A stretch of 64,000 nt of DNA, taken from the NCBI GenBank assembly GCA_963847625.1, contig CAWKAR010000033.1:74449-138448 (forward strand), given 5' to 3'. Within the stretch, counting starts at the first letter, position 1; each line of letters begins with the position of its first letter. The position numbers were made by a program, and so were the translations under genes. The notes under the pieces are model-generated. The model was not told the DNA's origin, searched no databases, and was given only the letters and a program-made list of their open reading frames with translations. The stretch comes from a candidate division FCPU426 bacterium (GTDB lineage Bacteria > Oederibacteriota > Muellerivitia > Muellerivitales > Muellerivitaceae). Shown here in pieces: positions 13,567-62,803 of this stretch.

Positions 13567-15108
13567 TTGAATCGAGAAGAAAAAACCAAGGTCTTCGAGT
13601 ATATCGCTTTTACCATAATGGCGGTAATCATTTGCCTGGAGCGATGGCACACCTACCTGGAACCGCTCGAGCGGGACATTACGACTTACGCAGTCATTGG
13701 ACACGAACTGCTTTCAGGCAGAAAACTTTATTCGGATCTTTGGGATTGCAAACCTCCCGTCCTTTACTTTTCCTTTTCCATGGCGGAAGTCCTGGCCGGA
13801 TACGGTCCCTCCGAAATCTACCTGCTCAATATCCTAACGGGCCTTTTGACCCTGTGGGGCGTGTACCGGGCGGGCTGCCGGATCGGCGGAAGGGCAGGAG
13901 GCCTGTGGGCTTCCCTTTTTTGGTCGGTTCTTTCAGGTGACCTTTACCTTCAAGCCAACCAGCCGAATATCGAAGTTTTCCTTAACGCATGCCTCACTTG
14001 GGCTTTTGTCTTTTGGCTGGGAGTCGGCGAAAAAAAATTTGATGCGCGAAAGGGGGCGGCCGTCGGGTTTTTACTTGCTTTAGCCTCGCTTTATAAACAT
14101 GTTTTCATTTTCAGTGACATCCTGATGGGCCTGCTTTACCTGGGTTTACAATGGAAAAATCATCTTGCCAGGCGAGCCGCTTATTCCATGGTTCTTTGGA
14201 TTTTTGGGTTTTTATCCGCAACCTGGGTCCTCCTGGTGGGGTACTTCGCCCTGACCCAGCGGATAAAAGACTTCATAGGCGCTATCGTTATCTACAATTT
14301 TTTCAACAATCACTTCGGTGTTGGCCGGGTTTCCATTTTTCTAGAGTTCTTCCAACACAATCAAACCGGTATGGAATTCCCGATTTTTATCCTACCCCTT
14401 TTGTTGTTGAGCTTAGGAGGGATTTTATTCCGCGATGAAAAAAATATTCAACCTTGGCTTTTATGGTTGGTTTTTCTCATTTCCTCTGAAGCCGCCCTTT
14501 TTGCACCTGGTCTCTTCCTTCCCCATTATTACCAACTCCTGCTGCCATGGCTTGTGATCGGAGGAGGTTGGAGTTCGGCCCGATTGGGACAAGTCCTTTC
14601 TGGTCGATGGAAAAAAACTTCCCTTTTACCCGGAATTCTCGTGCTCCTTATCCTGATTTTCCATGAAGCGCCCTTTTACCAGTGGCCGGCGGTGACTTGG
14701 TCGGAAAAAAAATACGGGGACGTTTTTACACAAACGGTCGATTTGGCGAAAAGGGTCGATCAAATCCTAGAACCAGGTGAGACCTTTTATGAATGGGGGA
14801 ACGAAACGGGCCTTTATTTTCTGACAAAAAGGTCCCCTCCTTGTGGGCTTTTTTATGGTTTTCCGCTGATGATTTCCAACTTGACGGATACCTTAAGCCT
14901 CAAAACCATTGAGCAACTGGGAAAAAACAAACCCGAGCTTTTCATTTTTTACACAGGTTATCTGCCAGAAGGCTGGGGGCGGAATCCTCTAATGGTTTGG
15001 CTCCGGGAACATTACCGATTATTGCCTGGTGAAAAAAAAGGGGGGAAATTCCTTTTTCTGATGCGAAAAGGAGGGCGTTTGGAAAAAAGGCTTTCCGATA
15101 AGATCTGA
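13567..15108 (+). CDS. GT-C-like polytopic membrane protein (513 aa, no TPR); paralog of 33343..34929
   Basis: Shares the motif HTY.EP.ERDI...DLW.CKPPV near the N-terminus with the 528-aa protein. It has more than 10 TM segments. Confidence 0.6.
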   Translation: MNREEKTKVFEYIAFTIMAVIICLERWHTYLEPLERDITTYAVIGHELLSGRKLYSDLWDCKPPVLYFSFSMAEVLAGYGPSEIYLLNILTGLLTLWGVYRAGCRIGGRAGGLWASLFWSVLSGDLYLQANQPNIEVFLNACLTWAFVFWLGVGEKKFDARKGAAVGFLLALASLYKHVFIFSDILMGLLYLGLQWKNHLARRAAYSMVLWIFGFLSATWVLLVGYFALTQRIKDFIGAIVIYNFFNNHFGVGRVSIFLEFFQHNQTGMEFPIFILPLLLLSLGGILFRDEKNIQPWLLWLVFLISSEAALFAPGLFLPHYYQLLLPWLVIGGGWSSARLGQVLSGRWKKTSLLPGILVLLILIFHEAPFYQWPAVTWSEKKYGDVFTQTVDLAKRVDQILEPGETFYEWGNETGLYFLTKRSPPCGLFYGFPLMISNLTDTLSLKTIEQLGKNKPELFIFYTGYLPEGWGRNPLMVWLREHYRLLPGEKKGGKFLFLMRKGGRLEKRLSDKI

Positions 15109-19547: not shown

Positions 19548-21631
19548 AATTCCCGCAAGAGTTGGTCCGCATTGGTGAAATTCATGGGGGCATGACTCGC
19601 TTGTTGAAAAGCTTCCCGGGCTTCAACCCTATTCCGGTCAATGTATAAAAGAGTACCCAAAGTATAGTATAGGTGCGTCGCCGGATAACCGCTTTTCAAG
19701 GCTTGCCGAATGTCCTGGATGGATTCCCGGTGGTCCTGGAACCCCATCTTCAAATCATTGTCCGCGGCCTTTTCCCAAAAACAAGATTCCAGGAAGGGGT
19801 CTCCCCGGAAATAAGGATAGGCTTGTAAAAGCGAATCCCGGACCGGTTGAAAAGACTGGCCATGGACATAGGAAAGGAATTGGTGGATGAAGGGTTTTAA
19901 AGCCTCTGCGGCTTTTTCCCAACGCGCCATTACTTCCTGGCGATTGGGTGTCACAGGCATTACCCAAAGCATCGTCCCACCGTTGGGCTCAGGAGCTTCC
20001 TTGTCGAGGAAATAGGCCTTCCCGTCCGGAAATCGCTTGGCCAGGAAGGGACGGTAATGAACGTTCACGAGGACCGCAGCCCATTTAAACTTTTCCCCTA
20101 AAAGTTCCGGATTCCACACCTGATTGTAGGCATAAGTGGAAAGAGTGAGGGTCTGGTCGCAAAACCCGGGAGAAAAATCCGTGAAAATCAATCCTTGGCC
20201 TTCGTTACGGGCTTTTTGTTTCAGGATTTCATCCGCCTTAAATCGTATAAAAGATTTCGTGTTCCAATAGGACGGGGTTTCCCATGTTTTCCGGTAGGGC
20301 CCCGCTAAGTGGTAAAAATCCAATGCAAAAGAAGCCAAAAAGATTCCGGAAACTACAAAAAACGGTTTCATCACCGGTGAAAAAGACAAGAACCTGGATA
20401 AACCAAGGGCTGCGGCCGCCAGTATGAGTGGCATGAGGGGCAAAAGGCGAAAAGGCTCGAGGGTTTTGGTGAGTAGCGCCGGAACCAGGAACATGACCAG
20501 GCCGATTCCCAGACATCGATAGAGGGGCAGGGTGCGGTTTTTAAACATTTCAAGGCAAGCCAGGAAAAATGCGGACCCGAGGATAGGATTGAGGAACCCA
20601 CCCCAGGCGGGGTAGTAGGGATGGATATGGTCCTGAAATCCCCAGAAAGGCACCGCAAGATAGTCCAAGGATGTCTCCAACTGGTTATGGATGGGAGAGC
20701 TTTTCGAAAAGGCCCAAAGGTCGTTTAAATACCAGCCATATCCTTGGCGGATGGCGGCCAGAACCAGGGGGAAAAATAAGAAGATAGCGGCCATGGAAAA
20801 AATGAAAAAATGGGAAAAACCGGATTTCCTTTTCAGGGAAACGGCCAAAACAACGAGGCCAATGAATCCCGCGATGGGGGGCCAGGAAATATGGATGTAG
20901 AACCCGGCCCCGACGATCATGCCTAAAAACAGACTCCCTGTTTTTTGATCCTTCAGGGGGGCGTTTAAATATTTACCCAAAAAATAAAAGGCCAGGCATT
21001 CCCAAAATGGGATCAACACCGTCATCAACGAATACCGCCCTGCGTAAAAAGGCCAGAAACTACCCGCCAAAAAAAGAAGCAAGAGGAATGAGAACGACTT
21101 GGAAAAATATTGACGGAAGGCGAAATAACCCACGGGGACGGTCAATAACGAGACTAAAGCGGGGAAAAACCAAAGGGTGCCCAACGAGACGCCAAAAATT
21201 TTGAAAAAAAGTCCCAGCCCCCAAGCATACGCCGGAGGGGATTGACTGCTGAAGTAGAACAAGCGCCAGTCCCATTTCCGGGAAAGTTCCAAGGCGGAAT
21301 AATTGATGGAGCCTTCGTCGTAAAGCGGCCAGACCGAAAGAGTGGTGAGTTTGTAAAACCGCACGCAGATGGCCAAAGCCGCCACCGATAACCAAATCCA
21401 GGTTGGAATCGCCGGCAAAAATTCCTTTTGGTAAAGGGGGACTTCTTTTGGGGATGGGGCGGGAAAGAAGTGCCAGGCCATTACCCAGGGGAATACCAAC
21501 CCCAGCAGGCCGATTCCCAGCTTCATCCAAAACGGAAGGGGAAAATAGGCAATAAAGGCGTTAGAAAGGAAGAAAATAAATAAATATGGCCATGGGTTGG
21601 AGGGATAAAAATATCGAAACATGATTTTCAT
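19535..21631 (-). CDS. GT-C-fold membrane glycosyltransferase with C-terminal TPR-like repeats, paralog 5 (first of the coupled trio)
   Basis: Motif FYKLTTLSVWPLYDEG. The stretch SPKEVPLYQKEFLPAIP is identical to paralog 4. TPR-like C-terminus. Confidence 0.8.
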   Translation of the reverse strand: MKIMFRYFYPSNPWPYLFIFFLSNAFIAYFPLPFWMKLGIGLLGLVFPWVMAWHFFPAPSPKEVPLYQKEFLPAIPTWIWLSVAALAICVRFYKLTTLSVWPLYDEGSINYSALELSRKWDWRLFYFSSQSPPAYAWGLGLFFKIFGVSLGTLWFFPALVSLLTVPVGYFAFRQYFSKSFSFLLLLFLAGSFWPFYAGRYSLMTVLIPFWECLAFYFLGKYLNAPLKDQKTGSLFLGMIVGAGFYIHISWPPIAGFIGLVVLAVSLKRKSGFSHFFIFSMAAIFLFFPLVLAAIRQGYGWYLNDLWAFSKSSPIHNQLETSLDYLAVPFWGFQDHIHPYYPAWGGFLNPILGSAFFLACLEMFKNRTLPLYRCLGIGLVMFLVPALLTKTLEPFRLLPLMPLILAAAALGLSRFLSFSPVMKPFFVVSGIFLASFALDFYHLAGPYRKTWETPSYWNTKSFIRFKADEILKQKARNEGQGLIFTDFSPGFCDQTLTLSTYAYNQVWNPELLGEKFKWAAVLVNVHYRPFLAKRFPDGKAYFLDKEAPEPNGGTMLWVMPVTPNRQEVMARWEKAAEALKPFIHQFLSYVHGQSFQPVRDSLLQAYPYFRGDPFLESCFWEKAADNDLKMGFQDHRESIQDIRQALKSGYPATHLYYTLGTLLYIDRNRVEAREAFQQASHAPMNFTNADQLLRELWQK

Positions 21632-26419: not shown

Positions 26420-28576
26420 TTAACTTGCCCCATTCCCCTGTGGTTTATCCTGGAAAATTTTTTCCTGCGGCTGTTTATGGTTATCCCGGAGGATCCGATC
26501 GAGAATTTTAATATTCTCCCAGGCTGAATTGGAATTATACGGGGATAAAACAGCTTTTTGAAAAGCGGACCGGGCCTCAGCGAACCTTCCCATATCAGTC
26601 AAAAGCGACCCTTCTAGGTAATAGAGATGAGGGACTGGAAAACCTTTTTTTATGGCTTGTTGAAAGGCTTGAAGAGCGCCCAAACTGTCCTGAATGGAAA
26701 CACGATGAAAAGCCACTTTCTCCCATAGGCAGGTCATTAGAAAGGGATCCGACTTGACAGTAGGTTCGATTTCCAGGAGCTGACGGATGATTGGTAACTT
26801 CGATTCACCCATAAAAAGATCGAAAGTTTGAGAAGTAATGGGTTGAAGGCGTCTATTGAACTCGTACCAGGAGCGAAGGGTTTGGATGTTGAAGGGATCG
26901 ACAGGTATGACGCCGAGCATTTCATTTTGTTCCAGCCAGTACCAATGGCCAGTTGGAAAGGCTTTTGACAAGAACTGCCTGTAATCAGGATGGACCAGAA
27001 GGGCGGCCCAACGCGCCTCCGAGAAAGGGATCCGATTGTTACGGGCAGCATTGAATGAATATGTGGCAATGGTAAGAGTTTGATCCCCGATTTCAGGGCG
27101 AAATTCCGAAAGTATCATGCCGGGGCCTTTTTCCTTGTTTATTTTTTCCAAAATTCCATAAGCCCTCCAGTATTGGATTAATTTCAAATGATTCCAAGCG
27201 GGCCCAGGCGTTCCCCCAAGGCGGTGATAGGGACCTTCCAAATGGTAAAGGTCCAAAGTGATCGAAGCCAACAACAGCAGGACCATTCCCGCCGACTTCC
27301 AGGAGGAAAACTTGCCCGGCCTGAAAAACAAGTCGAACCATCCCAGGCAGGAGATAAAAACCAGCAACGGAAAAATTTGAGTCATCCGGAATATTTCAAA
27401 CCCTTGGGCGAGAAAACCCGGCAAAGAAAACAGGATCAAGCTAAACAAAATCCATTGGAAAAAACCCTGACGGCGGTACTGGATGCATTTCAAGATGCCC
27501 AGGAAGAAACCTGTGTCCAGGATGGGATTCAGCATGCCGCCCCAAAGGGGACCGAAACAATTAGGCGGGCTGGCCGCCCAAAAAAGGGAGGCCCATTTGA
27601 GGAAGCCTTCCGTAATTGAAGCGGCCCAATCCGAATCTGGAGAAAAAGCCCAAATATGTTTTACGTGTACACCGTTGTTTAATTTCCATGAAAGGAAGAA
27701 AAATATTCCGGTAAAAAAAAACAAGGGTAGAGCCATTGAAAATAATATTTTTATCGTCTGGGGACCTTTTTGTTTTATAGGACCAATCACCGCCGATATA
27801 ACACAAAGAGCCACCACGGGCCAGGCCGCACCGGTGAAAAAACCAATCCCGACCACCATTCCTAAACCAAAAGCGGACAAAAAAAGAGCAGCAGGAGTTG
27901 ACGATCTTAAGAGTTGTATCAAGGTAGTAAAAGCAAGGACTGTCCAAAAAAGTATTATGACATACCATACACAAAATTTAGCGGTGTAAAGAAAAGGAAA
28001 ACTAAAGGAAAAAAGTGCCAAAAGCATAAAAGAAAAATAATCGAAAAAAAACCGTCTATTAAACCAAGCCACGATAACGGTAAAAATTGAAACCAAGCCG
28101 GGAAAGAACCAAAGGGAAAAAAGGGATGGGGGAAAGATTTTAAAGAAAAGCGCCAAAAGCCATTGGGTGAGTGGCGGAACTTGGGCGTAGCTAAAAAAAA
28201 ATTTCCAATCCCATTTTTTAGCTAATTCCATTGCGTAATAACAGTAAAGTCCATCGTCTCCGGTGGGCCAAGTCGATAGGGTCGTCAATTGGGCTAGGCG
28301 TGGCAAACAAGCGAGAATGAGCAAGGACGACCAACACCACCAAGGCAAAACAAATTGGTTGGGTTTTTTCCAGGGAATGGGTTGTTCCGCGGAGCCTAAG
28401 GGTACCCACCCAAAAGCCGCCACTAAGGGTAAGATAATTCCCGCAAGAACGACAACAAGTTTGATGTTTCCGGGAAGAGGAAAATACGATAGAAGCGTGT
28501 TGGTGAGCAGAAAAATAAAAAAATAGATCCAGGAGTTTTGAGGCAGGGAAACATTTTTATGAAAACAAGAGAACAT
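26420..28576 (-). CDS. GT-C-fold membrane glycosyltransferase with C-terminal TPR-like repeats, paralog 7
   Basis: Motif TWPTGDDG..VPPLTQWL and C-terminal PVPHLYYLEGSLLTDMGRFAEARSAFQKAV. I chose the start at the internal ATG 28576 (MFSCFHKNVSLPQNSWIYFF), 10 nt after the hpnE stop. The longer ORF, to 28723, would overlap hpnE by 137 nt with an Arg/Pro-rich extension. Confidence 0.7.
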   Translation of the reverse strand: MFSCFHKNVSLPQNSWIYFFIFLLTNTLLSYFPLPGNIKLVVVLAGIILPLVAAFGWVPLGSAEQPIPWKKPNQFVLPWWCWSSLLILACLPRLAQLTTLSTWPTGDDGLYCYYAMELAKKWDWKFFFSYAQVPPLTQWLLALFFKIFPPSLFSLWFFPGLVSIFTVIVAWFNRRFFFDYFSFMLLALFSFSFPFLYTAKFCVWYVIILFWTVLAFTTLIQLLRSSTPAALFLSAFGLGMVVGIGFFTGAAWPVVALCVISAVIGPIKQKGPQTIKILFSMALPLFFFTGIFFFLSWKLNNGVHVKHIWAFSPDSDWAASITEGFLKWASLFWAASPPNCFGPLWGGMLNPILDTGFFLGILKCIQYRRQGFFQWILFSLILFSLPGFLAQGFEIFRMTQIFPLLVFISCLGWFDLFFRPGKFSSWKSAGMVLLLLASITLDLYHLEGPYHRLGGTPGPAWNHLKLIQYWRAYGILEKINKEKGPGMILSEFRPEIGDQTLTIATYSFNAARNNRIPFSEARWAALLVHPDYRQFLSKAFPTGHWYWLEQNEMLGVIPVDPFNIQTLRSWYEFNRRLQPITSQTFDLFMGESKLPIIRQLLEIEPTVKSDPFLMTCLWEKVAFHRVSIQDSLGALQAFQQAIKKGFPVPHLYYLEGSLLTDMGRFAEARSAFQKAVLSPYNSNSAWENIKILDRILRDNHKQPQEKIFQDKPQGNGAS

Positions 28577-28586
28577 TAGTCCTATT

Positions 28587-29921
28587 TTATGTTTTTTTGC
28601 CAAGGACTTCTTGAGCTTTCTCCGCAGCCTTGTGGCCCGAAAGGCAGGCGCCCTCGATGGTGGCCGGGAGTCCGGTATCGGTAAAGTCGCCGGCCAGGAA
28701 GATATGGGGGAAAGGCGTCTCACAAGGAGGTCTCAGGGAGTCCGTTTCCCGTGACCAGCGGAAGGTCGCCGACATTTCACGAGTGACTTTAGAATGAAGC
28801 ACCTGGGCTTTCCGGGCTAATGGACAACGAACCTTTAATTCTTCCGCCGCCAAGTCCACCAGTTCCTTATCCGTCATTCGGGAGAGTTTTTCGGCGGCGC
28901 TGGCCGTGAAGCTGAGGTACTGGCCCTCCCCCCTCCAATTCCAGTTGGCGTTGCGGTTGAAAACCCACTCGAATTGGGCGCCTGACAGCCCCACCAGGGA
29001 CTCGCAGGTGACTTCCAGGGAGAGGATCAAGTGAACCGACAGGATGGGGGATTTGCCCAGTTTTGGCAGGGTTTCCAAGGCGGGCCAGCTTCCTTTCGGC
29101 CAAACGGCGTGAAGGGAAGCGGGGGAAACGGCCAGGACCAGGGCATCGCCGGAATAAGTTTTTCCAGATCGGCCGGTGAGAGTGAAATCATTTCCATGAA
29201 CTTGAATTGTTTGGATTCTCTCATGAAAATGAACCATCCCCCCTTTTTCTTCAAGGTAAGGAGCCACCTGGGGAAAGGCTAATTCGCTCAAGGGTTTGAT
29301 GGCGAGCCCAAAGGCGCTGTCAAAGCGGGAACCGAAGAAAACATGGTGAAGCACCTCTCCCAGGCCCCTCAGGGGGGCGATATCCGTCCCTATGTTCATC
29401 ACCGCGTTGGAAAGAGGAACCCAGAACCTTTTCCGGGCGGCGGGACCTTGGCCCGAGGCGTCTAAAAATTGGGAGACAGTCTCCAAGCCAGGATTGATCT
29501 TGAAGGGTTTTTTTGAAAAAACCAAGAGAGCCCTGGCCAGGCTTATTTTTTCCCCGAAGGGAAAGGCGTTGGAAGTCAGAAGGCCATAGGCCAAGTGGAA
29601 AGGCGCGGGAAAGCGAGCGCATTGAAGCGATACTTTTCCCCCGGGTGTGAGCCAGGAAAGACGCAGGGGATCGATCCATCGGAAAGAATTTTCCACCCCC
29701 AAGCGTCTTAACAGCGCCAATGTTTCCCGGTAACAACCCATGAAAAGATGCGGGCCATTGTCGCAGGCATAGGGAAAAGCCTTGGTGGGGGCGGTGGAAT
29801 AGACTCGGCCGCCCAAAAACCCGCGGGATTCCAGAAGGTCCACCGAATGGCCCTTTTGCGCCAAGGCAGTGGCGGCCGCCACTCCGGCAAAACCACCCCC
29901 GACCACCAGGACCTTCGGCAT
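28587..29921 (-). CDS. hpnE: hydroxysqualene dehydroxylase (squalene-associated FAD-dependent desaturase, amine-oxidase fold)
   Basis: N-terminal FAD dinucleotide-binding motif VLVVGGGFAGVAAA. It is 444 aa and lies directly downstream of an hpnD-like gene. Confidence 0.75.
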   Translation of the reverse strand: MPKVLVVGGGFAGVAAATALAQKGHSVDLLESRGFLGGRVYSTAPTKAFPYACDNGPHLFMGCYRETLALLRRLGVENSFRWIDPLRLSWLTPGGKVSLQCARFPAPFHLAYGLLTSNAFPFGEKISLARALLVFSKKPFKINPGLETVSQFLDASGQGPAARKRFWVPLSNAVMNIGTDIAPLRGLGEVLHHVFFGSRFDSAFGLAIKPLSELAFPQVAPYLEEKGGMVHFHERIQTIQVHGNDFTLTGRSGKTYSGDALVLAVSPASLHAVWPKGSWPALETLPKLGKSPILSVHLILSLEVTCESLVGLSGAQFEWVFNRNANWNWRGEGQYLSFTASAAEKLSRMTDKELVDLAAEELKVRCPLARKAQVLHSKVTREMSATFRWSRETDSLRPPCETPFPHIFLAGDFTDTGLPATIEGACLSGHKAAEKAQEVLGKKT

Positions 29922-29960
29922 GAAAACCTCCTAAGATCACCCGGCCATTTACCGGATGGA

Positions 29961-30830
29961 TTAAAGCCACTTCAGCAAAAAACACCGGCCCATGGCGCCA
30001 AGAACCGAAAGGCCCTTATCCAATGAAGTCAAGGAAACCCTTCCCTCTAGGATTTTCTGCGGATGAATCCTTAATTGTTGGAAGAGCTTCACGTAAACAG
30101 CGGCAATGGCCTCGGCTGTTTTCAGCTCGCCCCTCTCCCGGGGAGTGAGGACCGCGCGGGCTTTCTCCAAAAAAGACCAGGCCCGGTCCAATTGGAATTC
30201 GATGAAGGAAACCCAATTGGAATCGTTCTCTCCGATCACGGCGGGATTTACATGGAAGCGTTTGAAATCCACTTGGGGGAAATACCGGCGTTTAAGGCCC
30301 GTGTCCTCCAGATAATCCCTCGTGATATTGACCAATTGCAGGAAAACCCCCAGATTTTCCGCGTAGCTGCGGTGGGCGGGGTCCTTGTAACCGAATATTT
30401 CCATGCTGGAAAGGCCTGGACCTCCCGCCACCTTCAAAGCATAGTTGTGGAGTTCCCGGAAGGATTTGAACTGGACGGGCTTCAAATCCATTTCCACCCC
30501 TGAAACAACGCGCCAAAGGGGTTCGGAGGACAGCCTGTGACGGATCACCACTGCCTGAAGCTTTTGGAACAGGGGTTGACCAGCTTTTCCTGCGAGACAA
30601 CCCTTGAGGTCCCGCTTGAAATCCGCCAACTTCTTTCTTTTGATGGGTAACGGGTCGGTTCCATCCGAAATTTCGTCTGCTTCCCAACAAAACCGGTAGA
30701 GGACCTCCATGGCTTCCCTCTTATCCCGGGGAAGAAGGAGCAGGGGCAAATAGAAACTGGTTTTTTTCCGAAGCAAGCCATCCTGGGGATTCACCAATCC
30801 CTCCTCACAGATTCTAAATGACGCGGTCAA
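29961..30830 (-). CDS. hpnD: presqualene diphosphate synthase (squalene/phytoene synthase family)
   Basis: Squalene/phytoene synthase family. It is 289 aa, carries the motif YLPLLLLPRDKREAMEVLYRFCWEADEISD and is adjacent to hpnE. Confidence 0.7.
   Translation of the reverse strand: MTASFRICEEGLVNPQDGLLRKKTSFYLPLLLLPRDKREAMEVLYRFCWEADEISDGTDPLPIKRKKLADFKRDLKGCLAGKAGQPLFQKLQAVVIRHRLSSEPLWRVVSGVEMDLKPVQFKSFRELHNYALKVAGGPGLSSMEIFGYKDPAHRSYAENLGVFLQLVNITRDYLEDTGLKRRYFPQVDFKRFHVNPAVIGENDSNWVSFIEFQLDRAWSFLEKARAVLTPRERGELKTAEAIAAVYVKLFQQLRIHPQKILEGRVSLTSLDKGLSVLGAMGRCFLLKWL
30643..30803. repeat. direct repeat copy 1 (within the hpnD 5' coding end); a near-identical copy lies at 32763..32924
   Basis: A 161-nt segment is repeated 2120 nt away with about 5 mismatches (gggtaacgggtcggttccatccgaaat...caccaatccctcc). 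Confidence 0.85.
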
Positions 30831-30906
30831 AATTAAAGAAAGTAAATTCCTTTTGTTTTAATAAGTTAATTTAAACTTTTTCCAGAAAGTCATTGGACTG
30901 TGTAGT

Positions 30907-32604
30907 TTACCTGTTCAAATGGTATCCGGAGAAAGAAAAACTTCGGTAGGGAGGGATGGCGTTTGGATAATAGGGAAAAGAGTTGATGATGGCCGAATTG
31001 TCCTTCGCTGGCGCAATCGAAGTGCCAGGTATTTCATAATAATAGATGGTTCCTCCCACGTTTCCAGTTGGTCGTAAGCGTCCCACCCAAGGGGATTTTT
31101 TAAAAAAGAGAAAGTCATAATTGAAAGAACCCAGGATAGTGGGGCTCAGAACATAAACTGTTCCCGGCTGGGGCCACGAAAGGTCCCGCTGGGTCCATGG
31201 TTCCCAAGAAAGGCCATAAAAATAAGGGTCCGTCCTCATGCCCGAAATGAACTTCACCTTTTTCCAATCCTTTTGAAGGGCTGTTTCCGCCAGGCGTTTC
31301 ATGTCCTGCCCCAAATTCCAGTCATAGATGTATAAGCAGGAGGTTTTTTGTTCCGTGGTCATGAAGTCGTTGGCGTAGGCAATATGATGAGGAAAATTGC
31401 AAATCGTGGTCAAGGGATGCCAGGCCAGCAAAAGAATCGGAAAAGCCTTAACGATGGCCGAGGAATGGGAACGGAGTGTTTCCCAAAGCCGTTGAAAAAC
31501 CCTGGCCGAGATGAGTATGAGAAAGGGATAAATAGGGAGGGCGTGCCGGATGAGCATGGATTTATCAAGAAAATAAAAAACTGCCAAATAAACAAGGGGT
31601 GGAACCCACAGACAGGGTGGAAGTGAAATTTTCCTCCTTAACACGGCTGCGACTGCCAGGCCAACGAGACAGAAAAATGGAACGGTGTTTTTAAAGAAGA
31701 AATGATAGGGGAAATTGAGGTAGGAACCGTTCGGCCAGAATCTCCCGGCAAAGAAAATTGGATGACTGGAAATGTCCGGTTGAATATCGGCATAAATTTG
31801 CAGGTAATGCAAATAAAAGTGGAGGGGCCAGGGATGGCTGGCCACAAGAATGGTTCCTGGCAGGTACACCAGGGAAACGCTTACGAGAAAACCCAAAAGT
31901 CCGGACAGCCACAGAGGGACCCTTCCGGCCCACTTTTTCCGCCCGCCTTCCGTTTCGCGGCAAAAAAGGATTTCAAGGACCAGAATAGACGGCAGGACCA
32001 ACATGCCGTTGTAACGGGTGGCAGCCGCCAATCCAGCCAGAAGACCCGAAATAAAAAAAGGTAAAATCCGCCCTTTGGGCTGGATCCGGGAAAAATAGAA
32101 CAGGCAAAGGAAAAACCAGAAAACCACAGCGATATCCGTTTTAGCCGTACCGGTAAAGGCCAGAAGATTCGGCTCAAAAGCCCAAAGGACAAGGGCAGCC
32201 GCGCCCTCGACTAATGGGCCGTCACGGACTGTTCGGAAAAGGAGGAAGCCGATCAAAAGCCCCAGCAGCCAATTGATGTTTCGGCTCCAAAAAGTCATGG
32301 CGGTCAGGTGATCGTGATTGTCCATGAAAAGAAACCGTAAGGATCGGTCGACGTATACGGGTGGAAGGGTTGGGTCCAGCTTGAGGTTCATCCCCAGGAG
32401 CGGAAGGGCACAAAGGGCGCCCGGTGCGGTGTTGCCCCAGGGCGTCCAAACGTCACCTGTTTTGAGGTAGTAATAAGATGCCGTGAGTTCCCATTCCTCG
32501 TCCATGACGATGGAATCGCTCCACCAACGGGGAATGATTTGGAGGCTAAAGAAAATGGCGCAAGCGAGAAAACATTTCCAAAGCGTGTTAGATGTTCGGG
32601 TCAT
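30907..32604 (-). CDS. GT-C-fold membrane glycosyltransferase (GT39/ArnT-like, no TPR)
   Basis: Polytopic protein. It has a DEEWE motif in the first extracytoplasmic loop and PLLG..PPVY. I chose the start at ATG 32604 (MTRTSNTLW..). The ORF extends to 32718 through AT-rich sequence that looks intergenic. Confidence 0.65.
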   Translation of the reverse strand: MTRTSNTLWKCFLACAIFFSLQIIPRWWSDSIVMDEEWELTASYYYLKTGDVWTPWGNTAPGALCALPLLGMNLKLDPTLPPVYVDRSLRFLFMDNHDHLTAMTFWSRNINWLLGLLIGFLLFRTVRDGPLVEGAAALVLWAFEPNLLAFTGTAKTDIAVVFWFFLCLFYFSRIQPKGRILPFFISGLLAGLAAATRYNGMLVLPSILVLEILFCRETEGGRKKWAGRVPLWLSGLLGFLVSVSLVYLPGTILVASHPWPLHFYLHYLQIYADIQPDISSHPIFFAGRFWPNGSYLNFPYHFFFKNTVPFFCLVGLAVAAVLRRKISLPPCLWVPPLVYLAVFYFLDKSMLIRHALPIYPFLILISARVFQRLWETLRSHSSAIVKAFPILLLAWHPLTTICNFPHHIAYANDFMTTEQKTSCLYIYDWNLGQDMKRLAETALQKDWKKVKFISGMRTDPYFYGLSWEPWTQRDLSWPQPGTVYVLSPTILGSFNYDFLFFKKSPWVGRLRPTGNVGGTIYYYEIPGTSIAPAKDNSAIINSFPYYPNAIPPYRSFSFSGYHLNR

Positions 32605-32762
32605 ATTTGGATTATATTTGAACGGCAACCGACAGGTATCCTCAACTTGTCTTTTTTTAAAAAAAGTAAAGGGTGTATATTCCGGTTTTTTCGATTCATT
32701 ACCTCTTATATCCACCATGCATCTGGCTCTTGGATGGGTATATATCGATTCACCCTGGGCCT

Positions 32763-32924
32763 ATGGGTAACGGGTCGGTTCCATCCGAAATCTCGTCTGC
32801 TTCCCAACAAAACCGGTAGAGGACCTCCATGGCTTCCTTCTTATCCCGGGGAAGAAAGAGCAGGGGCAAATAGAAACTGGTTTTTTCCGAAGCGAGCCAT
32901 CCTGGGGATTCACCAATCCCTCCC
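32763..32924. repeat. direct repeat copy 2: an orphan fragment of the hpnD 5' end (about 53 codons), not part of an intact gene
   Basis: See copy 1. On the minus strand it encodes ..KTSFYLPLLFLPRDKKEAMEVLYRFCWEADEISDGTDPLP and then diverges. Confidence 0.85.
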
Positions 32925-33342
32925 AAACACTCTTAAATTGGTGATTTAAATTAAAAAAAGATAGCTGAATTCAATCAGTAAGTGCAGCAAGTAGGCGAAA
33001 GACCTGCTCAAGCATTCTGAAACCAAAGCTTTTACAAGGACGGTTATTAAGAATTCATTCCATACGGTGTGCTTTCGCCAGAATTATGGTAGCAAAATAG
33101 GTCTTTTTGGGATAGAAGCGTCAAACCAAATCAGAGGTATTTTCGATAATGCCTTATTCCTAACTTTGGAAAAACACACATAAAAGGAATGGATGCCAAA
33201 TGCAATAATAACTTGTAGATGTTCAAAATTTTGGAGCTGTTATAAAGTGAAATAAGTAGGTGTGGACCTTTTACCAGTGACTAACACAAATTCTCCACGT
33301 TCTTTAATATTCAACGGTCCTGAACTTGATTGAATTACTCAA

Positions 33343-34929
33343 TCAATAGAGCCCAAGTTGCGGGTTGTTTTGGATCCGTTTTTCCAACTCTCCGCCTTTC
33401 CGCACCATAACGAGAAAATGACCGTCCTCTGGATAAGTCTGCCAAACTCTGTATTCTTTCTCAAACCAAGAAGCATTTTCTGGATAGCGTTTTTGATCGA
33501 TAACAACCGCCTCAGGTTTTTTATTCTTCAGATCTGCTTTCAATCGATTTGAAAGTTGGCCAACCATCGGACCTTCCTTTAAAAACCAAGCACAATATGC
33601 GCCGGTTGGAGGATCCCGTCGACTGGCAAAATAAATTCCTAATTCGTTTCCGAAATGGTAAAAAGTTTCTTCTGGAAGCAAAACCTTATCCAGCGCCGTC
33701 CCGAGCCGTTGCGCATCCACAAAGGTCGCTTCGTAACGCTTCGTCGACCATTGATCCGCTGAAAGGAAATAAAAGGGAATTTCATGATAAAGAATCAAAA
33801 GTAACGCGATGGAGGGTAAGAAAAAGGCCCTAGACGTTGAAATCCTCCAAAGCAACGCGGCTGACCATCCCCCGGCCACCATCAAGACAGGAAGGCCTAA
33901 TTGAAAATAATGTGGAAACCAATGACCTGATGCATTGGTTTCAATAAAAACGGCGATACCGTAAGCCACTAAGACTTTCCAATAGGAATAATTCATTTTG
34001 TAAAAGCGGCCTGCTAAGAGGGTGGTCAAAATTAAAAGAGGCCAAAGAATCCACCGGATATCACGGTAAAACATAAGTCCAGGGATCAAACCCTTGGCAA
34101 GATGATGCCAAATACTCCCCGCCAAATAGGAATCGTATGTCACCAATGCATCCCAACAATCTTGAAAACGATTATGGATCGCGAAATAAATGAAAGTGAG
34201 TGCCCAAAATAAAAAAGAAGGAAGAACAAAAAGAATCAGTCTTGGAATATCCAGTTTCCATTTTCGATTTTTCCAAACCGCCAAACCCGACCCCAGGGCC
34301 AATAAAATCGGGAAAATCAGCATGGGATGCTTGTAACAAGCCGACAGGCCCCCAAGAAGACCGATACAACCGCAGCGGACCAACGACATGGGTTTATGAC
34401 CCCAAACCGCCAAGGCGAAAGCGGAAGCCTGCAAGGCAATAACAAACACCTCGGTATTAGGTTCATTGGCCTCCAACATGAGGTCCGTGCACGAGGCGGC
34501 CCAAAACACCGCCGCCCAAAGGCCTCCGACCTCCCCCATGACACGACCCGCGGAATAAACAGCCACTAAGGTAACGCTCGCTGCCAAAAGCCAAAGCAAA
34601 TAAAATTCAAAAGGCCCGTATCCGGCGATTTTTTCTCCCAAAGCATAGGTAATAAAAATGGCTGGCGGTGTGTTAACCCAAAGGTCCGTGAAAAGAAGCC
34701 GCCCCTTCAGCATTTCATGAGCTGTAACCGCATAAATGTGGATATCGCGTTCCATAGGTTCCCGATAGGTGTGAAACCGGGCTGCTGCCATCACCGCCCA
34801 GAGCGCAAACAGGAAAAAAATTGAATAAATCGAAACTTTCCGGGGAGGGCCAGGGTTTTTGGGGGTTTGCGGTCCGATTTCTTCGATGGGGTAACCAGAA
34901 AAGTCTGCAACTCTATGTAACACTTTCAC
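33343..34929 (-). CDS. GT-C-like polytopic membrane protein (528 aa), paralog of 13567..15108
   Basis: Shares RFHTYREPMERDI..DLWVNTPPAIF with the 513-aa protein. More than 10 TM helices. Confidence 0.6.
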   Translation of the reverse strand: MKVLHRVADFSGYPIEEIGPQTPKNPGPPRKVSIYSIFFLFALWAVMAAARFHTYREPMERDIHIYAVTAHEMLKGRLLFTDLWVNTPPAIFITYALGEKIAGYGPFEFYLLWLLAASVTLVAVYSAGRVMGEVGGLWAAVFWAASCTDLMLEANEPNTEVFVIALQASAFALAVWGHKPMSLVRCGCIGLLGGLSACYKHPMLIFPILLALGSGLAVWKNRKWKLDIPRLILFVLPSFLFWALTFIYFAIHNRFQDCWDALVTYDSYLAGSIWHHLAKGLIPGLMFYRDIRWILWPLLILTTLLAGRFYKMNYSYWKVLVAYGIAVFIETNASGHWFPHYFQLGLPVLMVAGGWSAALLWRISTSRAFFLPSIALLLILYHEIPFYFLSADQWSTKRYEATFVDAQRLGTALDKVLLPEETFYHFGNELGIYFASRRDPPTGAYCAWFLKEGPMVGQLSNRLKADLKNKKPEAVVIDQKRYPENASWFEKEYRVWQTYPEDGHFLVMVRKGGELEKRIQNNPQLGLY

Positions 34930-35081
34930 AATTTATCCTTTAAATAAACCTCGCACAACTAAGTGTTCTGGCCAACATTCAACAATTTTTGAATATCACA
35001 TACTTTGAAGTTTTCAAACGATTTGCATTTCCCACCAACGCATTAAACAATATAATTTTGGAAATTCAATACTTACAAGTC

Positions 35082-35954
35082 TTAAGTATTAAAAAGACCG
35101 GAAAAGGTTTTCAAAATTAAAAGTGTTTTATCCAAGGGGTTCAAAACGGGACGACTTTCGAAAACATTGTAGTCCATATCCCGGATTTTATTCAGGGTTC
35201 CTTGGCCGCTCAGGTAAGTGGCCTTCAGTTCCAGCTTCAGGCGTCCGTCGACCGCGGAAAGAAGAGGATAACCCTGGCGGAAATAGTTCTCCGTAAAATC
35301 CACGGCATTTTTCACCAAATACCTGGTACCGTCCGAATTCTTTCCTTTAAAAAAATCCTGTTCCGCCAATCCGGCTTTTTTCCATTCTCTTTTGGGGTAA
35401 TAGATCCGGTCGCGGCGTAAATCTATGGCGGTATCCTGCCAAAAGTTGATGAGTTGCAGACCGCCGCAAATGTAATCCGAGTAACGGTGGAGTTTCTCCT
35501 CGCGGATGCCTGAAATATAAAGCACCATGCGGCCCACGGGATTGGCGCTATGGCGGCAATAATAAAGCAAGGAGTTCCAAGTGGAATACCGGTGGATTCT
35601 CAAGTCCATCCGGTAGGCTTTTAGAAGGCACAAGGGAAGCGATAAGGGTATTTGAAAGGTTTTGATCGTATGGGCGAAGGCCTGGAGGATGGGAGGCGCT
35701 TTCTTGCCCTTCAGGGCGTTTTGAAGCCCCTTTTCCCAACGGTTCAATGCGGAAAGGCGTTTTCCTTCGTAGGCTTCCTCATCAGCGAAGTCATCTGCGG
35801 CGCGGGCAAAAGTGTATAAAGCCGCCACATGGAGACGGCTTTCCCCGGGCAACATCCAGGAAGCCACGGGAAAATTCTCGTAATGGCTTTGGGCCAAGCG
35901 AAGGCATTCCCGGTAGGCCGATTCCAAGCCGGATGGAAAGGTGTATTTCATCAA
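35082..35954 (-). CDS. hpnC: hydroxysqualene synthase (squalene/phytoene synthase family)
   Basis: N-terminal HYENFPVASWMLP...ALYTFARAADDFADE, which is characteristic of HpnC-type squalene synthase-like enzymes. 290 aa. Confidence 0.7.
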   Translation of the reverse strand: MMKYTFPSGLESAYRECLRLAQSHYENFPVASWMLPGESRLHVAALYTFARAADDFADEEAYEGKRLSALNRWEKGLQNALKGKKAPPILQAFAHTIKTFQIPLSLPLCLLKAYRMDLRIHRYSTWNSLLYYCRHSANPVGRMVLYISGIREEKLHRYSDYICGGLQLINFWQDTAIDLRRDRIYYPKREWKKAGLAEQDFFKGKNSDGTRYLVKNAVDFTENYFRQGYPLLSAVDGRLKLELKATYLSGQGTLNKIRDMDYNVFESRPVLNPLDKTLLILKTFSGLFNT

Positions 35955-39384: not shown

Positions 39385-39461
39385 GGACGTTTAGCTCAGC
39401 TGGTTAGAGCGTCGCGTTCACATCGCGAAGGTCACTGGTTCAAGTCCAGTAACGTCCACCA
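39385..39461 (+). tRNA. tRNA-Val (anticodon CAC), CCA encoded
   Basis: Cloverleaf read by eye: acceptor GGACGTT/AACGTCC, D-arm GCTC..GAGC, anticodon stem TCGCG/CGCGA with loop TTCACAT, and a T-arm ACTGG-TTCAAGT-CCAGT. Confidence 0.85.
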
Positions 39462-39748: not shown

Positions 39749-40534
39749 ATGGGCTTATCAATGGAAACTTTATCTCAAATCATTCAAAAATCTAAAAAAC
39801 GCCTTCTTCAAATGCACTTCGAAAGCGGTGTAGGACACATCGGGGGCAATCTTTCCTGCCTGGACACCCTCATGGTTTTGCACCACCAAGTCCTAAAAAA
39901 AGAGGATCTCTTCATCCTTTCCAAGGGTCATGCCGCGGGAGCCCTTTATATCACTCTCTGGTCGAGGGGAAAACTCAAGGATGAGGATTTAAAGCTTTTT
40001 CACAAGGAACCCACCAAACTCAGCGGCCATCCCGCCCCCAACTGGCATGAGGATATTATTTTCGCCACCGGCAGTCTGGGGCATGGTTTTTCCCTGTCGG
40101 CCGGGCTGGCTTTGGCCAAAAAATTCAAGGGCGAATCTGGGAGGGTTTTCTGCCTGATGTCGGACGGAGAATGGCAGGAAGGCTCCAACTGGGAGGCTCT
40201 CATCTTTTCCCTCCACCAGAAATTGGAATCCTTGACTATCATCATTGACGCCAACGGCTTCCAGGGATTCGGATCGACCAAGGAAGTCGCCGGCTTGGAT
40301 TCCCTGAATGGGAAATTCCGTTCTTTTGGGATGCCTACCCAGGAGGTCAATGGCCATGATTTAAATGCCATGGAGAAGGCCCTCAATCAAAACACGCCCG
40401 GACCCCGGGCCATCATCGCCAATACCGTCAAGGGCCATGGTGTTTCTTTCATGGAAAATAAATGGGAATGGCATTACCTGCCCTTGAAAGAGGATCAGTA
40501 CCGCCAAGCCCTCCAAGAGATGGAAAAACCATGA
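39749..40534 (+). CDS. tkt: transketolase, N-terminal (TPP-binding) subunit of a split transketolase
   Basis: 261 aa with a GDG-type TPP motif (LMSDGEWQEGSNWEA) and HIGGNLS..SKGHA. ATGA coupling to the next gene. Confidence 0.8.
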   Translation: MGLSMETLSQIIQKSKKRLLQMHFESGVGHIGGNLSCLDTLMVLHHQVLKKEDLFILSKGHAAGALYITLWSRGKLKDEDLKLFHKEPTKLSGHPAPNWHEDIIFATGSLGHGFSLSAGLALAKKFKGESGRVFCLMSDGEWQEGSNWEALIFSLHQKLESLTIIIDANGFQGFGSTKEVAGLDSLNGKFRSFGMPTQEVNGHDLNAMEKALNQNTPGPRAIIANTVKGHGVSFMENKWEWHYLPLKEDQYRQALQEMEKP

Positions 40535-41436
40535 GAAACATCTTTTGCGATACCCTGGTTAAAAGCGCTGGCCGGCCCGACTTTGTTTTTCTCACTGGCG
40601 ATTTGGGATACATGGCCCTCGAACCCCTGCAAAAAGCCGCAAAAACACGTTTTATCAACGCGGGTATTTCGGAGCAAAACATGGTATCGGTGGCGGCAGG
40701 CCTGGCTAGAGGGGGTTTTTCCCCTTGGGCCTACAGTATTGCCCCTTTTATTTACGCCCGTCCCCTGGAGCAGGTCCGTAACGACGTGTGTTTCCACGAT
40801 TTGCCGGTCAAACTGGTTGCTAACGGCGGCGGCTACGCCTATGGGGTCATGGGGGCCACCCACCACGCCATCGAGGATTACGGCATCCTGCTTTCTCTTT
40901 TAAACATGCATGTTTTCGTTCCCGCTTTCGGGTCGGATATTCCGCCGATCGTGGAAAAACTCTTTCATTTAAACCATCCCTCCTATTTACGGCTGGGCCG
41001 CGATGAAAAACCCAAGGATTTGGAGATACCAAGTTACGCTCCCTGGCGAAAGGTCCTGGAAGGCGGAGGCCCTGTCCTTCTCATCGTCGGCCCTTTAGTC
41101 GGCGGAATTCTCTCCGTATTAAGCCAATTGGAAGAAAAAAAACGCCCTCGAATTTGGGTTTTAACCGAATTGCCCCTGGAGGAAGGAACCATTCCGGCGG
41201 AATTCCTAAACGATTTGCGGCATTCCAAGCGTCTGATGGTGGCCGAGGAACACGTGGCCCACGGGGGCGCCGGGGAAATGATAAGCCGGGTTCTTCTCTT
41301 AAAAGGGGAAGCCCCGAAACGATTTTCTCATTTTTACGCCCAAGGATACCCTTCCGGTTATTATGGGTCCCAGACTTTCCATCGAAAAGAATCCGGCTTG
41401 GCGGCGGACAACCTCTTGAAAGAATTGGAATTCTAA
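40531..41436 (+). CDS. tkt: transketolase, C-terminal (pyrimidine-binding/C-domain) subunit
   Basis: About 300 aa. Contains FINAGISEQNMVSVAAGLA. Its start overlaps the upstream stop (ATGA). The ORF in the six-frame track begins further upstream in the same frame. Confidence 0.8.
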   Translation: MRNIFCDTLVKSAGRPDFVFLTGDLGYMALEPLQKAAKTRFINAGISEQNMVSVAAGLARGGFSPWAYSIAPFIYARPLEQVRNDVCFHDLPVKLVANGGGYAYGVMGATHHAIEDYGILLSLLNMHVFVPAFGSDIPPIVEKLFHLNHPSYLRLGRDEKPKDLEIPSYAPWRKVLEGGGPVLLIVGPLVGGILSVLSQLEEKKRPRIWVLTELPLEEGTIPAEFLNDLRHSKRLMVAEEHVAHGGAGEMISRVLLLKGEAPKRFSHFYAQGYPSGYYGSQTFHRKESGLAADNLLKELEF

Positions 41437-46436: not shown

Positions 46437-46786
46437 CCGAAACCCTGCCTACGCTGTGCCGATCTACAAGAAATAAATAATGAAATCGGTACTTTACCGA
46501 CCTGCCCAAAAGCCTAATGGATAGTCGGCATGTGGTGCGGAGGGCCATCTCTTGACAAATCAGCCAGGATTTTTAAGAAGAAACGATTTGACCCTTCAAA
46601 GGACATTGTTGGGGGAAGCGAACAAAGTCCTTGCCCTGAGGAATGTTAACAGGCTGACGGAAATTCACCGTGTTACTATGGGGCCTCCGAAACCCACTCC
46701 CCCACTTGATGAAGTGTCCCCGCTTGAACCCTAGGTTGGTTTTTTTGCGAAAATGAATCAGTAAAATTATTAAAAATCGTATTGAA

Positions 46787-55975: not shown

Positions 55976-56110
55976 GTCAAGGGACTGCCCTCCGCGCCGC
56001 ATGCCGACTATCCATTGGGTTTTTGGGAAGGTCAGTACCGATTTCCATATTGGCTTTTATAGCGAATCGGCACAAGTCCGGGGCCTTGGCAGGCGGTCAA
56101 ACGGCAAGCG

Positions 56111-60500: not shown

Positions 60501-62803
60501 CTCTGACGAATACTTTAACCAGTACGAGAACGAATACGCCGGCCTCTACCCCCACTGCCACGGCCAGCAATACACCGACAGTGACTTCCACGGTCACCAA
60601 TACCAGCACAGGAACCACATCTCCCACGCCGACTTTCACGAACACCCCCACCCGGACCCAAACTTCAACACCCACGAATACGGCAACTTCTACCCCGACT
60701 CCGACGGCGACCAACTCTTCCACAAGCACGCCTACGGCGACACCGACTAGGACCTTGACTCCCACTTCCACGAATACCCCGTCGAATACGGCGACAGCCA
60801 CGCCGACGAACACTTTAACCAGTACAAGAACGAATACGCCGACCTCTACCCCCACCGCCACGGCCACCAGTACACCGACGGTTACGCCTACAATCACCAA
60901 TACCAGCACGGGAACCACATCACCCACACCGACTTATACCAACACCCCCACCCGGACCCAAACTCCAACACTCACAAATACGGCAACTTCTACCCCGACT
61001 CCGACGGTGACCAACTCTTCCACAAGCACGCCTCCGGCGACACCGACTAGGACCTTGACTCCCACTTCCACGAATACCCCGTCGAATACGGCGACAGCCA
61101 CGCCGACGAACACTTTAACCAGTACAAGAACGAATACGCCGACCTCTACCCCCACCGCCACGGCCAGCAATACACCGACGGTGACGCCTACGGTTACCAA
61201 TACCACCACGGGAACCACATCTCCCACGCCGACTTACACCAACACCCCAACCCGGACCCAAACTCCAACACCCGCGAATACGGCAACTTCTACCCCGACT
61301 CCGACGGTGACCAACTCTTCCACCAACACGGCTACGGCGACACCGACTAGGACCTTAACTCCCACATCCACAAATACCCCGTCGAATACGGCGACAGTCA
61401 CGCCGACTAACACTTTAACCAGTACGAGAACGAATACGCCGACCTCTACCCCCACCGCCACGGCCAGCAGTACACCGACGGTGACGCCTACGGTCACCAA
61501 TTCCAACACGGGAACCACATCACCCACACCGACTTACACCAACACCCCAACCCGGACCCAAACTCCAACACCCACAAATACGGCAACTTCTACCCAGACT
61601 CCGACGGTGACCAACTCTTCCACCAACACGCCTCCGGCGACACCGACTAGGACACCGAGTGCGAGTGCAACGCCCTCCAGCACCCAAACTTTTACACCAA
61701 CATCGAGCTGGACCGCCTCCCAGACTCCAACGACTTCTTCGACATTAACTGGGACTCCCACATCCACGAATACCCCGTCGAATACGGCGACAGCCACGCC
61801 GACCCATACATTGACGGGGACCTCTACGCCCACCCTGACGAACACTTTAACCAGCACGAGGACGAATACGCCGACGGTGACGTCTACAGTCACCAATACC
61901 AACACCGGGACTCAATCGCCCACGCCCACTGCGACTAACACGTCCACGGTTACCAACAGCGCGACAGCCTCCCAGACTCCTACGGCTTCCTTAACATCAA
62001 CTGGGACGCCGACTTATACGCTGACCGGGACATCTACCAGCACGCCGACAAGCACCCCAAGCGCGACAGCGAGTTCGACAAGCTCACCGTCACCCTCCCA
62101 CACTCCTACGGCTTCCTTAACATCAACTGGGACGCCCACTTATACGCTGACCGGGACATCGACGGATTCGATGACGCCTACGGCGTCCCTCACCGCTACG
62201 CCTTCGGCTTCGCCAACACCGACACCAACGCCTACGAACACTTCCACCCCAACCCGTACGATGACAAATACGCCGACGATAACCTCTACCAACAGCACGA
62301 CGAACTCGCCCACTTCCACGTCAACCTATACTGAGACGCCGACAGCGACAGACACCCCAACGGCTACATCCACAACCACAACCACCAATACGGAAACAGC
62401 AACCCCCACTGCGACTTTCACGGTCAACCTGACTTTTACGTCGGCCAGCACCTCCACGAACACCCCTGCGGTTTCGGCAACAGCTACGGCCACTTCGACG
62501 GGAACTGCCGCTCCCGTTGGGAAAAATGGAGTGGTTGTTTATCCAAACCCAGTGAGAGGCCCAGGTCCGGTGACGATCCGCATTGCCTTAACCCAAAGGG
62601 AATCACTTGTTCGGGTGGAGATATTTACGCTGGCCTTCCGGAAAGTGAATGAGATTGATCTCATCCAAGTGCCGGCGGGGATTACCCCTCTTACCATCCC
62701 CCTGACGGACAAGGGAGGAAAACCCCTAGCCAATGGAATCTATTACGTGGTTGTCCAAACGCCCCAGGGCCGACAAATCGTTAAAATGTTGATTCTGCGT
62801 TAA
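57566..62803 (+). CDS. secreted giant glycoside hydrolase family 9-like protein. It has an N-terminal Ig-like/GH9 catalytic region, an about 1000-aa Thr/Pro/Ser/Asn-rich tandem-repeat stalk, and a C-terminal T9SS-like sorting/beta-sandwich domain
   Basis: TTG start with AAGG upstream and signal peptide [19 protein letters not shown]9 signatures [12 protein letters not shown] and [19 protein letters not shown]-rich repeats. C-terminal [11 protein letters not shown]...IVKMLILR resembles a T9SS CTD (YPNP motif, basic hydrophobic end). Confidence 0.75.
59487..62515 (+). repeat. coding low-complexity Thr/Pro-rich region with nested tandem repeats. The units are about 51 nt, about 168 nt (two copies from 59811) and 300 nt (five in-phase copies, 60226..61725)
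   Basis: The 50-mers at 60301, 60601, 60901, 61201 and 61501 (taccagcacgggaaccacat...) are near-identical at exactly 300-nt spacing. The blocks at 59811 and 59979 are near-identical. Confidence 0.85.

Follow-up and report, generated by a model that had tools for sequence, protein, structure and literature searches.

What separates the squalene genes hpnC, hpnD and hpnE, whose contiguity is common in bacteria (Santana-Molina et al., 2020; PMC7306690), in a bacterium of the candidate division FCPU426, and how did the intervening genes get there? The question is raised by a 64,000-nt stretch of contig CAWKAR010000033.1 (assembly GCA_963847625.1, positions 74,449 to 138,448; hereafter the window). 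On its minus strand, hpnC, GT2, GT1, hpnD and hpnE follow each other in the order of transcription as five of six co-oriented genes, with GT1 and GT2 predicted to code for glycosyltransferases of the GT-C fold. In all likelihood, an ancestrally contiguous hpnC-hpnD-hpnE operon gained 4.26 kb of DNA, with GT2 and GT1 coming from other contexts, and a fragment of hpnD was left behind as the mark of this event.

The three hpn genes are each intact, and conversion of farnesyl diphosphate to squalene is predicted for their products. HpnC and HpnE lie above the curated equivalog cut-offs of NCBIfam (278.8 bits on TIGR03464, cut-off 250.45, and 358.8 bits on TIGR03467, cut-off 283.05). HpnD matches Pfam SQS_PSY at 2.8e-49, and its top NCBIfam match is TIGR03465 at 180.7 bits, 80 bits over HpnC but under the equivalog cut-off of 278.6. 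Because this score is sub-threshold, its identity is drawn chiefly from orthology and position in relatives: it is 79% identical to a gene sited directly between hpnC and hpnE in the closest of these (L001), and its orthologues in five further loci (L002, L003, L006, L008 and L020) are likewise found between hpnC and hpnE. An N-terminal block of HpnD, KTSFY..LLLLP, is conserved among the homologues, which favors the upstream GTG as the start codon. The public annotation of the contig (P0113, window 29964-30794) begins HpnD at an internal ATG (codon 29), for a length of 249 aa, and a length of ~251 aa is similarly annotated for many homologues. The locus is thus like the bacterial HpnC/HpnD/HpnE pathway in the presence, common orientation and integrity of the three genes, and unlike its usual form in the 4.3-kb split, in the HpnD score and in the lack of a nearby cyclase. 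The sequence-only reading of this DNA had asserted that the window is devoid of a squalene-hopene cyclase, and no such domain was found among the window open reading frames (ORFs) scanned; its claim that two GT-C genes part hpnC from an adjacent hpnD-hpnE pair is likewise sustained by the domain, profile and fold evidence given below. Squalene made by HpnCDE can also feed C30 carotenoids (Santana-Molina et al., 2022; PMC9907078; PMC7306690).

The direction of the change is apparent from the gene orders in relatives. Those with HpnD identities above 40% all come from uncultured genomes, mostly labelled candidate division FCPU426. In L001, hpnC, hpnD and hpnE are contiguous, with a gap of 28 nt between hpnC and hpnD as against 4287 nt in the window, and the flanks of the two loci match, with orf38698, an MBOAT gene and orf36221 on one side, and hpnE, a GT-C/TPR gene and orf22290 on the other. 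The hpnCDE genes are also contiguous in the above five loci, which are more distant than L001. Together, the six loci cover 45-79% HpnD identity, with spacers of tens of nt. Relatives of GT1 or GT2 occur in none of the hpn loci compared. Instead, GT1-family genes adjoin a gene for an NFACT (RqcH-like) protein in L015, L026, L027 and L028, and GT2-family genes come after an HD-domain gene in L016 and L017. In the L001 genome itself, a GT1 homologue of 53% identity and the hpn operon share a 1.6-Mb contig but are ~290 kb apart, and two IS1595 transposase genes enclose the homologue. Since the relatives have contiguous operons, and the GT1 and GT2 families reside in other contexts, the interleaved order is derived, and the earlier suggestion of an insertion survives the comparison of synteny that had been proposed as its test.

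The converse would be that the order hpnC-GT2-GT1-hpnD is ancestral, with the relatives having lost the GT genes and the hpnD fragment being unrelated to the matter. The hpn operons of this clade are indeed often interrupted (L004, L005/L019), and GT-C/TPR genes adjoin hpnE in most relatives. We nevertheless consider this very improbable: it has to contend with six contiguous, tightly spaced loci across the above range of divergence and with the recurrent neighborhoods that the GT1 and GT2 families have of their own; the interruptions elsewhere involve a different gene family at different positions; and a 97%-identical hpnD fragment exactly beside GT1 is the expected trace of a recent gain. 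As a separate observation, one of the metagenome-assembled genomes (MAGs) with contiguous hpnCDE genes (MFD05512.bin.1.167; L003) has a second hpnD-like gene (L007:10001-10828, 56% identical) on a different contig, where neither hpnC nor hpnE adjoins it.

The intervening genes differ in how readily they are recognized. GT1 scores 35.7 bits on Pfam PMT_2, above the gathering cut-off of 26.1, and the profile of its family (A2, 30 homologues) matches yeast Pmt1 (6P25) with E=7.6e-15. Near its N-terminus, a D35-E36 pair is invariant in the 30 homologues; PMTs have an acidic Asp-Glu motif in the first luminal loop. The homologues also uphold the start at 32604 chosen in the earlier reading over the longest-ORF ATG at 32718; the public annotation calls GT1 as the 603-aa longest ORF, where homologues favor 565 aa. 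GT2 is without a match in Pfam, NCBIfam or the PDB, whether searched as a single sequence or as a profile, and has only five non-self homologues in a database of 5.8 billion proteins, including genes from Thioploca and from one Elusimicrobia MAG at ~35% identity. As the sequence and profile searches of the PDB gave nothing, we turned to fold prediction. The AlphaFold model, of moderate confidence only (pLDDT 71.6, pTM 0.71), has ArnT as its best Foldseek match in the PDB (5EZM, E=1.2e-7, TM 0.58), and the top 22 matches are all GT-C enzymes (ArnT, STT3, AglB, DPY19, AftA, Pmt4, ALG9, PglB, ALG3 and PimE). Moreover, the GT2 profile aligns with the GT1 family at an hhalign probability of 92.9%, and a GT2 paralogue at window 13567-15108 (36% identical) and the homologue P0109 both match PMT_2. 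Hence, GT1 is predicted to be a GT-C enzyme from its PMT_2 and Pmt1 profile matches, and GT2 from its modeled fold. Set against the known PMT/ArnT-type enzymes (GT39/GT83; PMT_2; 6P25, 5EZM), GT1 is alike in its above-threshold PMT_2 match and its Pmt1 profile match, and perhaps in its N-terminal Asp-Glu pair; GT2 is alike in a model whose best superpositions are with ArnT and further GT-C enzymes, and unlike in lacking any Pfam or NCBIfam match and in the rarity of its homologues. Enzymes of the GT-C fold are expected to use lipid-phosphate-linked sugar donors on the outside of the membrane, which would apply to both GT1 and GT2.

The most telling trace of the event is a direct repeat that brackets GT1. 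Its copies, A (162 nt) at the start of the intact hpnD and B (161 nt) on the far side of GT1, are identical at 157 of 162 positions (96.9%), are spaced by 2120 nt and differ by four substitutions and by a 1-nt deletion that shortens an A7 run. Read in the direction of transcription, the repeat opens at GGAGGG, 10 nt ahead of the hpnD GTG, and closes after codon 50, with identity dropping to background beyond both ends. A continuation of homology past the repeat was considered and rejected: the in-register identity of the 45 nt upstream is 44%, which is unconvincing against shuffles and AT-rich 45-mers (p ~0.02-0.04). No other dispersed repeat in the window is both long and near-identical; the remaining repeat families have less than 80% identity or lie inside the tandem array of a gene at 57.5-62.8 kb. 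The sequence-only reading had described a duplicated hpnD 5' end of about 97% identity flanking the GT39-like gene, and AT-rich non-coding stretches before the GT-C genes. Both descriptions are accurate, save that two of the repeat ends move by one base. The AT-rich spacers have a GC content of 0.35-0.38 and no ORF longer than 38 aa. Comparison of the four spacers with all fetched loci (blastn-short, tblastx) recovered no remnants of neighboring genes, hpnC 3' ends or flanks of donor loci. Likewise, no Rfam family or riboswitch was found at 28-37 kb, AT-rich spacers included, and no tRNA in the inserted DNA.

We polarized the differences between the copies with seven outgroup sequences. Copy B has three derived states, namely an A7-to-A6 frameshift, a Leu to Phe and an Arg to Lys change, whereas copy A has a single one, Ser to Leu (TCG to TTG), against all outgroups; the polarity of the fifth difference (GAA/GAG) is ambiguous. 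In either frame, copy B meets a stop at the repeat boundary. Both copies have thus been altered since the duplication, with the orphan copy B decaying in the fashion of a pseudogene, a decay that has only just begun. Each copy is only 78-79% identical to the orthologous segment of L001, comparable to the 77-78% of hpnC, hpnD and hpnE overall. Set beside the 96.9% between the copies, this provides a relative date: the duplication, and with it the insertion, took place long after this lineage and its nearest sampled relative had parted.

A repeat of this kind may also arise in assembly, and we therefore consulted Logan, a separate k-mer assembly (run ERR10755942), whose contigs were reached by exact-protein look-ups (that of GT2 via its cluster member P0111). 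One contig (L025) corresponds at 100% to window 39431-32808, running from the MBOAT gene through orf360, hpnC, GT2 and the spacer into the 5' part of copy B, with the A6 run included. A second (L013, window 32822-30688) holds the 3' part of copy B, GT1 and the 5' part of copy A, and a third (L012, window 30702-18588) the 3' part of copy A, hpnD, and hpnE onward. All three break inside a 45-nt stretch identical in both copies, in keeping with a short-k graph, which branches there. Copy B is reproduced base for base by the first two, and across the contigs the private variants of each copy are linked to their own flank. The disagreements between the window and Logan are confined to homopolymer lengths and one substitution. 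Among the former are C4 (window) versus C3 (Logan) at 30731, within copy A of hpnD, and A8 versus A9 at 22246. The C3 call, which would frameshift hpnD, is located close to the end of a contig; it is probably erroneous. The conflict shows, however, that homopolymer lengths in these data cannot be fully trusted. This also concerns the A6 run of copy B, although there both assemblies agree.

Several points weigh against the insertion as we reconstruct it. Genome contigs, JGI metagenomes and the 5.8-billion-protein set yielded neither a pre-insertion nor a single-insert allele, nor anything nearer than 79% HpnD identity, so that neither the order in which GT1 and GT2 arrived nor their donor can be shown. 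The best homologues of GT1 and GT2, at only 59% and 70% identity, respectively, do not reveal the source locus. The composition of the genes is equally unhelpful: GT1 is typical both in codon usage and in GC content at third codon positions (GC3, 0.565), and GT2, with a lower GC3 of 0.468, is like the resident GT-C/TPR paralogues. The comparison of GC and codon bias proposed in the sequence-only reading thus failed to set GT1 apart from its neighbors, and GC, GC3 and codon usage are uninformative as to a foreign origin of either gene. The Logan contigs, for their part, probably derive from the window's own sequencing run and constitute an independent assembly rather than independent data. Taken by itself, the k-mer graph is also compatible with a path from hpnC through the 5' part of copy B to the 3' part of copy A and hpnD, plus a 2.1-kb circle with GT1.

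Were that path the true one, the window would contain a mis-join at a short repeat, with GT1 lying elsewhere or on a small circle. The exact coincidence of the three Logan breaks with the repeat, at which the graph branches, and the homopolymer conflicts at 30731 and 22246 are what such an artefact might produce. Still, we regard it as exceedingly unlikely. The copies differ at five positions, and separate contigs tie each set of variants to the flank of its own copy. Each copy also departs from the outgroups in one derived state or more: the ancestral Ser codon survives in copy B but not in copy A, and three other ancestral states survive in copy A but not in copy B; a collapsed or duplicated single copy cannot yield such reciprocal ancestral states. 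Further, the identical stretch that breaks the graph is just 45 nt, below any normal read length, and the alternative path would leave a frameshifted chromosomal hpnD and a 2.1-kb circle without a replication gene. The possibility that the duplicate is an assembly artefact, allowed for in the sequence-only reading, therefore finds no support in the contigs.

By what mechanism was the insertion made? Insertion of a transposon or insertion sequence was rejected: the ORFs of the inserted DNA have no transposase domain, it has no inverted repeats of at least 30 nt (only trivial short ones), and a 161-nt duplication far exceeds a target-site duplication. A gene cassette of the integron type was likewise rejected, as there are no attC-like inverted repeats in the spacers and no integrase among the window ORFs scanned. 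We infer instead that GT1 arrived by recombination that used the first 162 bp of hpnD, that is, its ribosome-binding site (RBS) and 50 codons, leaving a second copy upstream. The route that we tentatively favor, at somewhat less than even confidence, is allelic homology-facilitated illegitimate recombination (HFIR). One allele would have had GT2 and a spacer before hpnD, and the other GT1 before hpnD; the two would have paired homologously across hpnD/hpnE, with the opposite junction being an illegitimate join at codon 50. It is preferred because just one new junction is needed and because it explains the start of the repeat at the RBS: alleles with different inserts in the 28-nt hpnC-hpnD spacer would begin their homology there, ~10 nt before the start codon. 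The downstream copy would stay the start of a working gene, and HpnD and HpnE would remain intact.

It is quite conceivable, if short of an even chance, that the same event took another course, by integration of a circular intermediate or by tandem duplication followed by deletion. In the former, a 2.1-kb circle with GT1 and the hpnD 5' piece would have integrated by a Campbell-type single crossover, whose classic product is precisely an insert flanked by direct repeats, in accord with the spacing of the copies; we hold it as a lesser possibility. Slightly less probable again is a tandem duplication of the segment comprising GT1 and the hpnD 5' end, with subsequent deletion of one GT1 copy; tandem duplication is the commonest bacterial rearrangement, but the 419-nt spacer bears no vestige of a second GT1 copy. 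Each of these two routes needs two new junctions or steps and leaves the start of the repeat at the RBS unexplained. Whichever route was taken, the rearrangement that the sequence-only reading had proposed, by which an insertion or duplication placed a glycosyltransferase within the squalene operon, is supported by the synteny, the repeat and the contigs.

HFIR and the orphaned gene ends resulting from it have been described for the effector-immunity arrays of type VI secretion systems (T6SS) and for Rhs and contact-dependent inhibition (CDI) loci (PMC5361080, citing de Vries and Wackernagel, 2002). Our locus is like the T6SS/Rhs loci in having a new module beside a conserved gene, a truncated, near-identical direct repeat at the border and no transposase or integrase. 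In those systems, it is 3' ends and immunity genes that are orphaned, and the arrays grow under selection for diversity; here, in contrast, where HFIR is the putative route, the 5' end of a housekeeping lipid gene was orphaned, and only once. What we describe is a known kind of event, a real but ordinary rearrangement in a poorly known phylum, and not a new kind of system. Its value lies in being a well-documented natural case of operon break-up, in which the insertion spares the downstream gene by duplicating its translation start.

Downstream of the insertion, hpnD still has its RBS and an unbroken coding sequence, and an unchanged hpnE comes after it. Scans for promoters and terminators gave matches no commoner than in shuffled sequence, with no convincing terminator between the genes; the two weak sigma-70-like matches in the spacer at 34930..35081, too, are not above the shuffled expectation. 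With all genes on one strand, read-through transcription into hpnD and hpnE is plausible; it might start from hpnC, and the AT-rich spacers might also supply new promoters.

The operon is situated in an island of envelope genes that includes seven GT-C/TPR paralogues and an MBOAT/DltB-like gene, among others. The seven paralogues (window 8151-28723) are of ~700 aa with 25-41% mutual identity, and combine a PMT_2-like membrane part with TPR repeats at the C-terminus. In L001, L003, L004 and L008, too, hpnE is followed by this family. The window exceeds L001 by one copy (26420-28723) in the interval from hpnE to orf22290, and the longest ORF of this copy overlaps hpnE by 137 nt. In two other FCPU426-related lineages, the hpn operon is interrupted by Acyl_transf_3 genes, in one between hpnC and hpnD (L005 and L019, 99% identical and from the same population) and in the other between hpnD and hpnE (L004, 42% identical to the former), and these are independent events.

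This recurrence raises the prospect that the placement was selected, with envelope-modifying membrane enzymes being recruited for co-expression with the synthesis of squalene-derived lipids. In FCPU426-related lineages, hpnCDE was interrupted three times independently, and each time by genes for integral-membrane envelope enzymes; the genes in the window are co-oriented without clear terminators, and the operon of relatives is bordered by MBOAT and GT-C/TPR genes. On the other hand, a large, fluid envelope island makes nearby paralogues the likeliest DNA to land there, and the insert in L004 is on the strand opposite to the operon. Selection is accordingly an unlikely explanation, and repeated interruption could simply reflect a fluid neighborhood. 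The more general notion that the hpnCDE gaps are a recurrent, selected landing site for such enzymes in FCPU426 is rather improbable; if it were true, squalene-derived lipids would be what these enzymes act on or are co-regulated with. They might then, for instance, attach sugars or acyl groups to a membrane lipid of the squalene or hopanoid type, or to a polymer that has its anchor in such a lipid.

In this candidate phylum without cultured members, then, the hpnCDE genes belong to a fluid, repeatedly interrupted envelope-gene island. This calls for caution in annotation: broken synteny is no ground for inferring an absent or incomplete squalene pathway in these genomes, nor should gene order be relied upon to find their hpn genes. 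The coordinates of the features discussed are collected in Table 1.

Table 1. Features of the hpn locus and of the related loci compared (window positions unless a locus is named).
Feature	Coordinates	Strand	Remarks
hpnE (hydroxysqualene dehydroxylase)	28587..29921	-	444 aa; TIGR03467, Pfam Amino_oxidase; 76% identity to L001 orthologue
hpnD (presqualene diphosphate synthase)	29961..30794	-	277 aa; GTG start at 30794, GGAGGG before it
Repeat copy A	30643..30804	-	RBS and first 50 codons of intact hpnD
Spacer, GT1 stop to copy A	30805..30906	-	102 nt; right end of bracketed segment; within Logan contig L013
GT1 (predicted GT39/PMT_2-like GT-C glycosyltransferase)	30907..32604	-	565 aa; Pfam PMT_2
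GT1 leader, copy B to GT1 start	32605..32762	-	158 nt; left end of bracketed segment
Repeat copy B	32763..32923	-	Orphan hpnD 5' fragment (pseudogene); RBS and GTG retained
AT-rich spacer, GT2 to copy B	32924..33342	-	419 nt, non-coding
GT2 (divergent membrane protein, predicted GT-C fold)	33343..34929	-	482-528 aa by start; start 34791 or 34923
AT-rich spacer after hpnC	34930..35081	-	GC about 0.35
hpnC (squalene synthase HpnC)	35082..35954	-	290 aa; TIGR03464; 75% identity to L001 HpnC
IS1595-family transposase genes around GT1-family gene, L001 genome	L014:8935-9843 and 20548-21459		
Acyl_transf_3 gene between hpnC and hpnD	L005:3440-4486; L019:1-471	+; +	L005/L019 99% identical, same population
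Acyl_transf_3 gene between hpnD and hpnE	L004:10915-12102	-	Opposite strand to operon; 42% identical to L005/L019 gene

Farther from the operon, the window has several other features. An ispH/lytB gene lies at 698-1567, and a split pair of transketolase/DXS-like genes at 39749-41436, with a tRNA-Val (CAC) gene at 39385-39461 just upstream of the pair. A 62-nt inverted repeat (46495-46556 and 55976-56037; 85% complementary), with arms 9.4 kb apart, encloses genes for an NHL-repeat protein, PCMT, a Sel1-repeat protein, a PMT_2-PA14 protein and an antiporter-like protein. Finally, the ORF of 1745 aa at 57566-62803 contains an array of 300-nt tandem repeats (73-95% identical) from ~59.5 to 62.3 kb, which is rich in codons of the Thr/Pro type.

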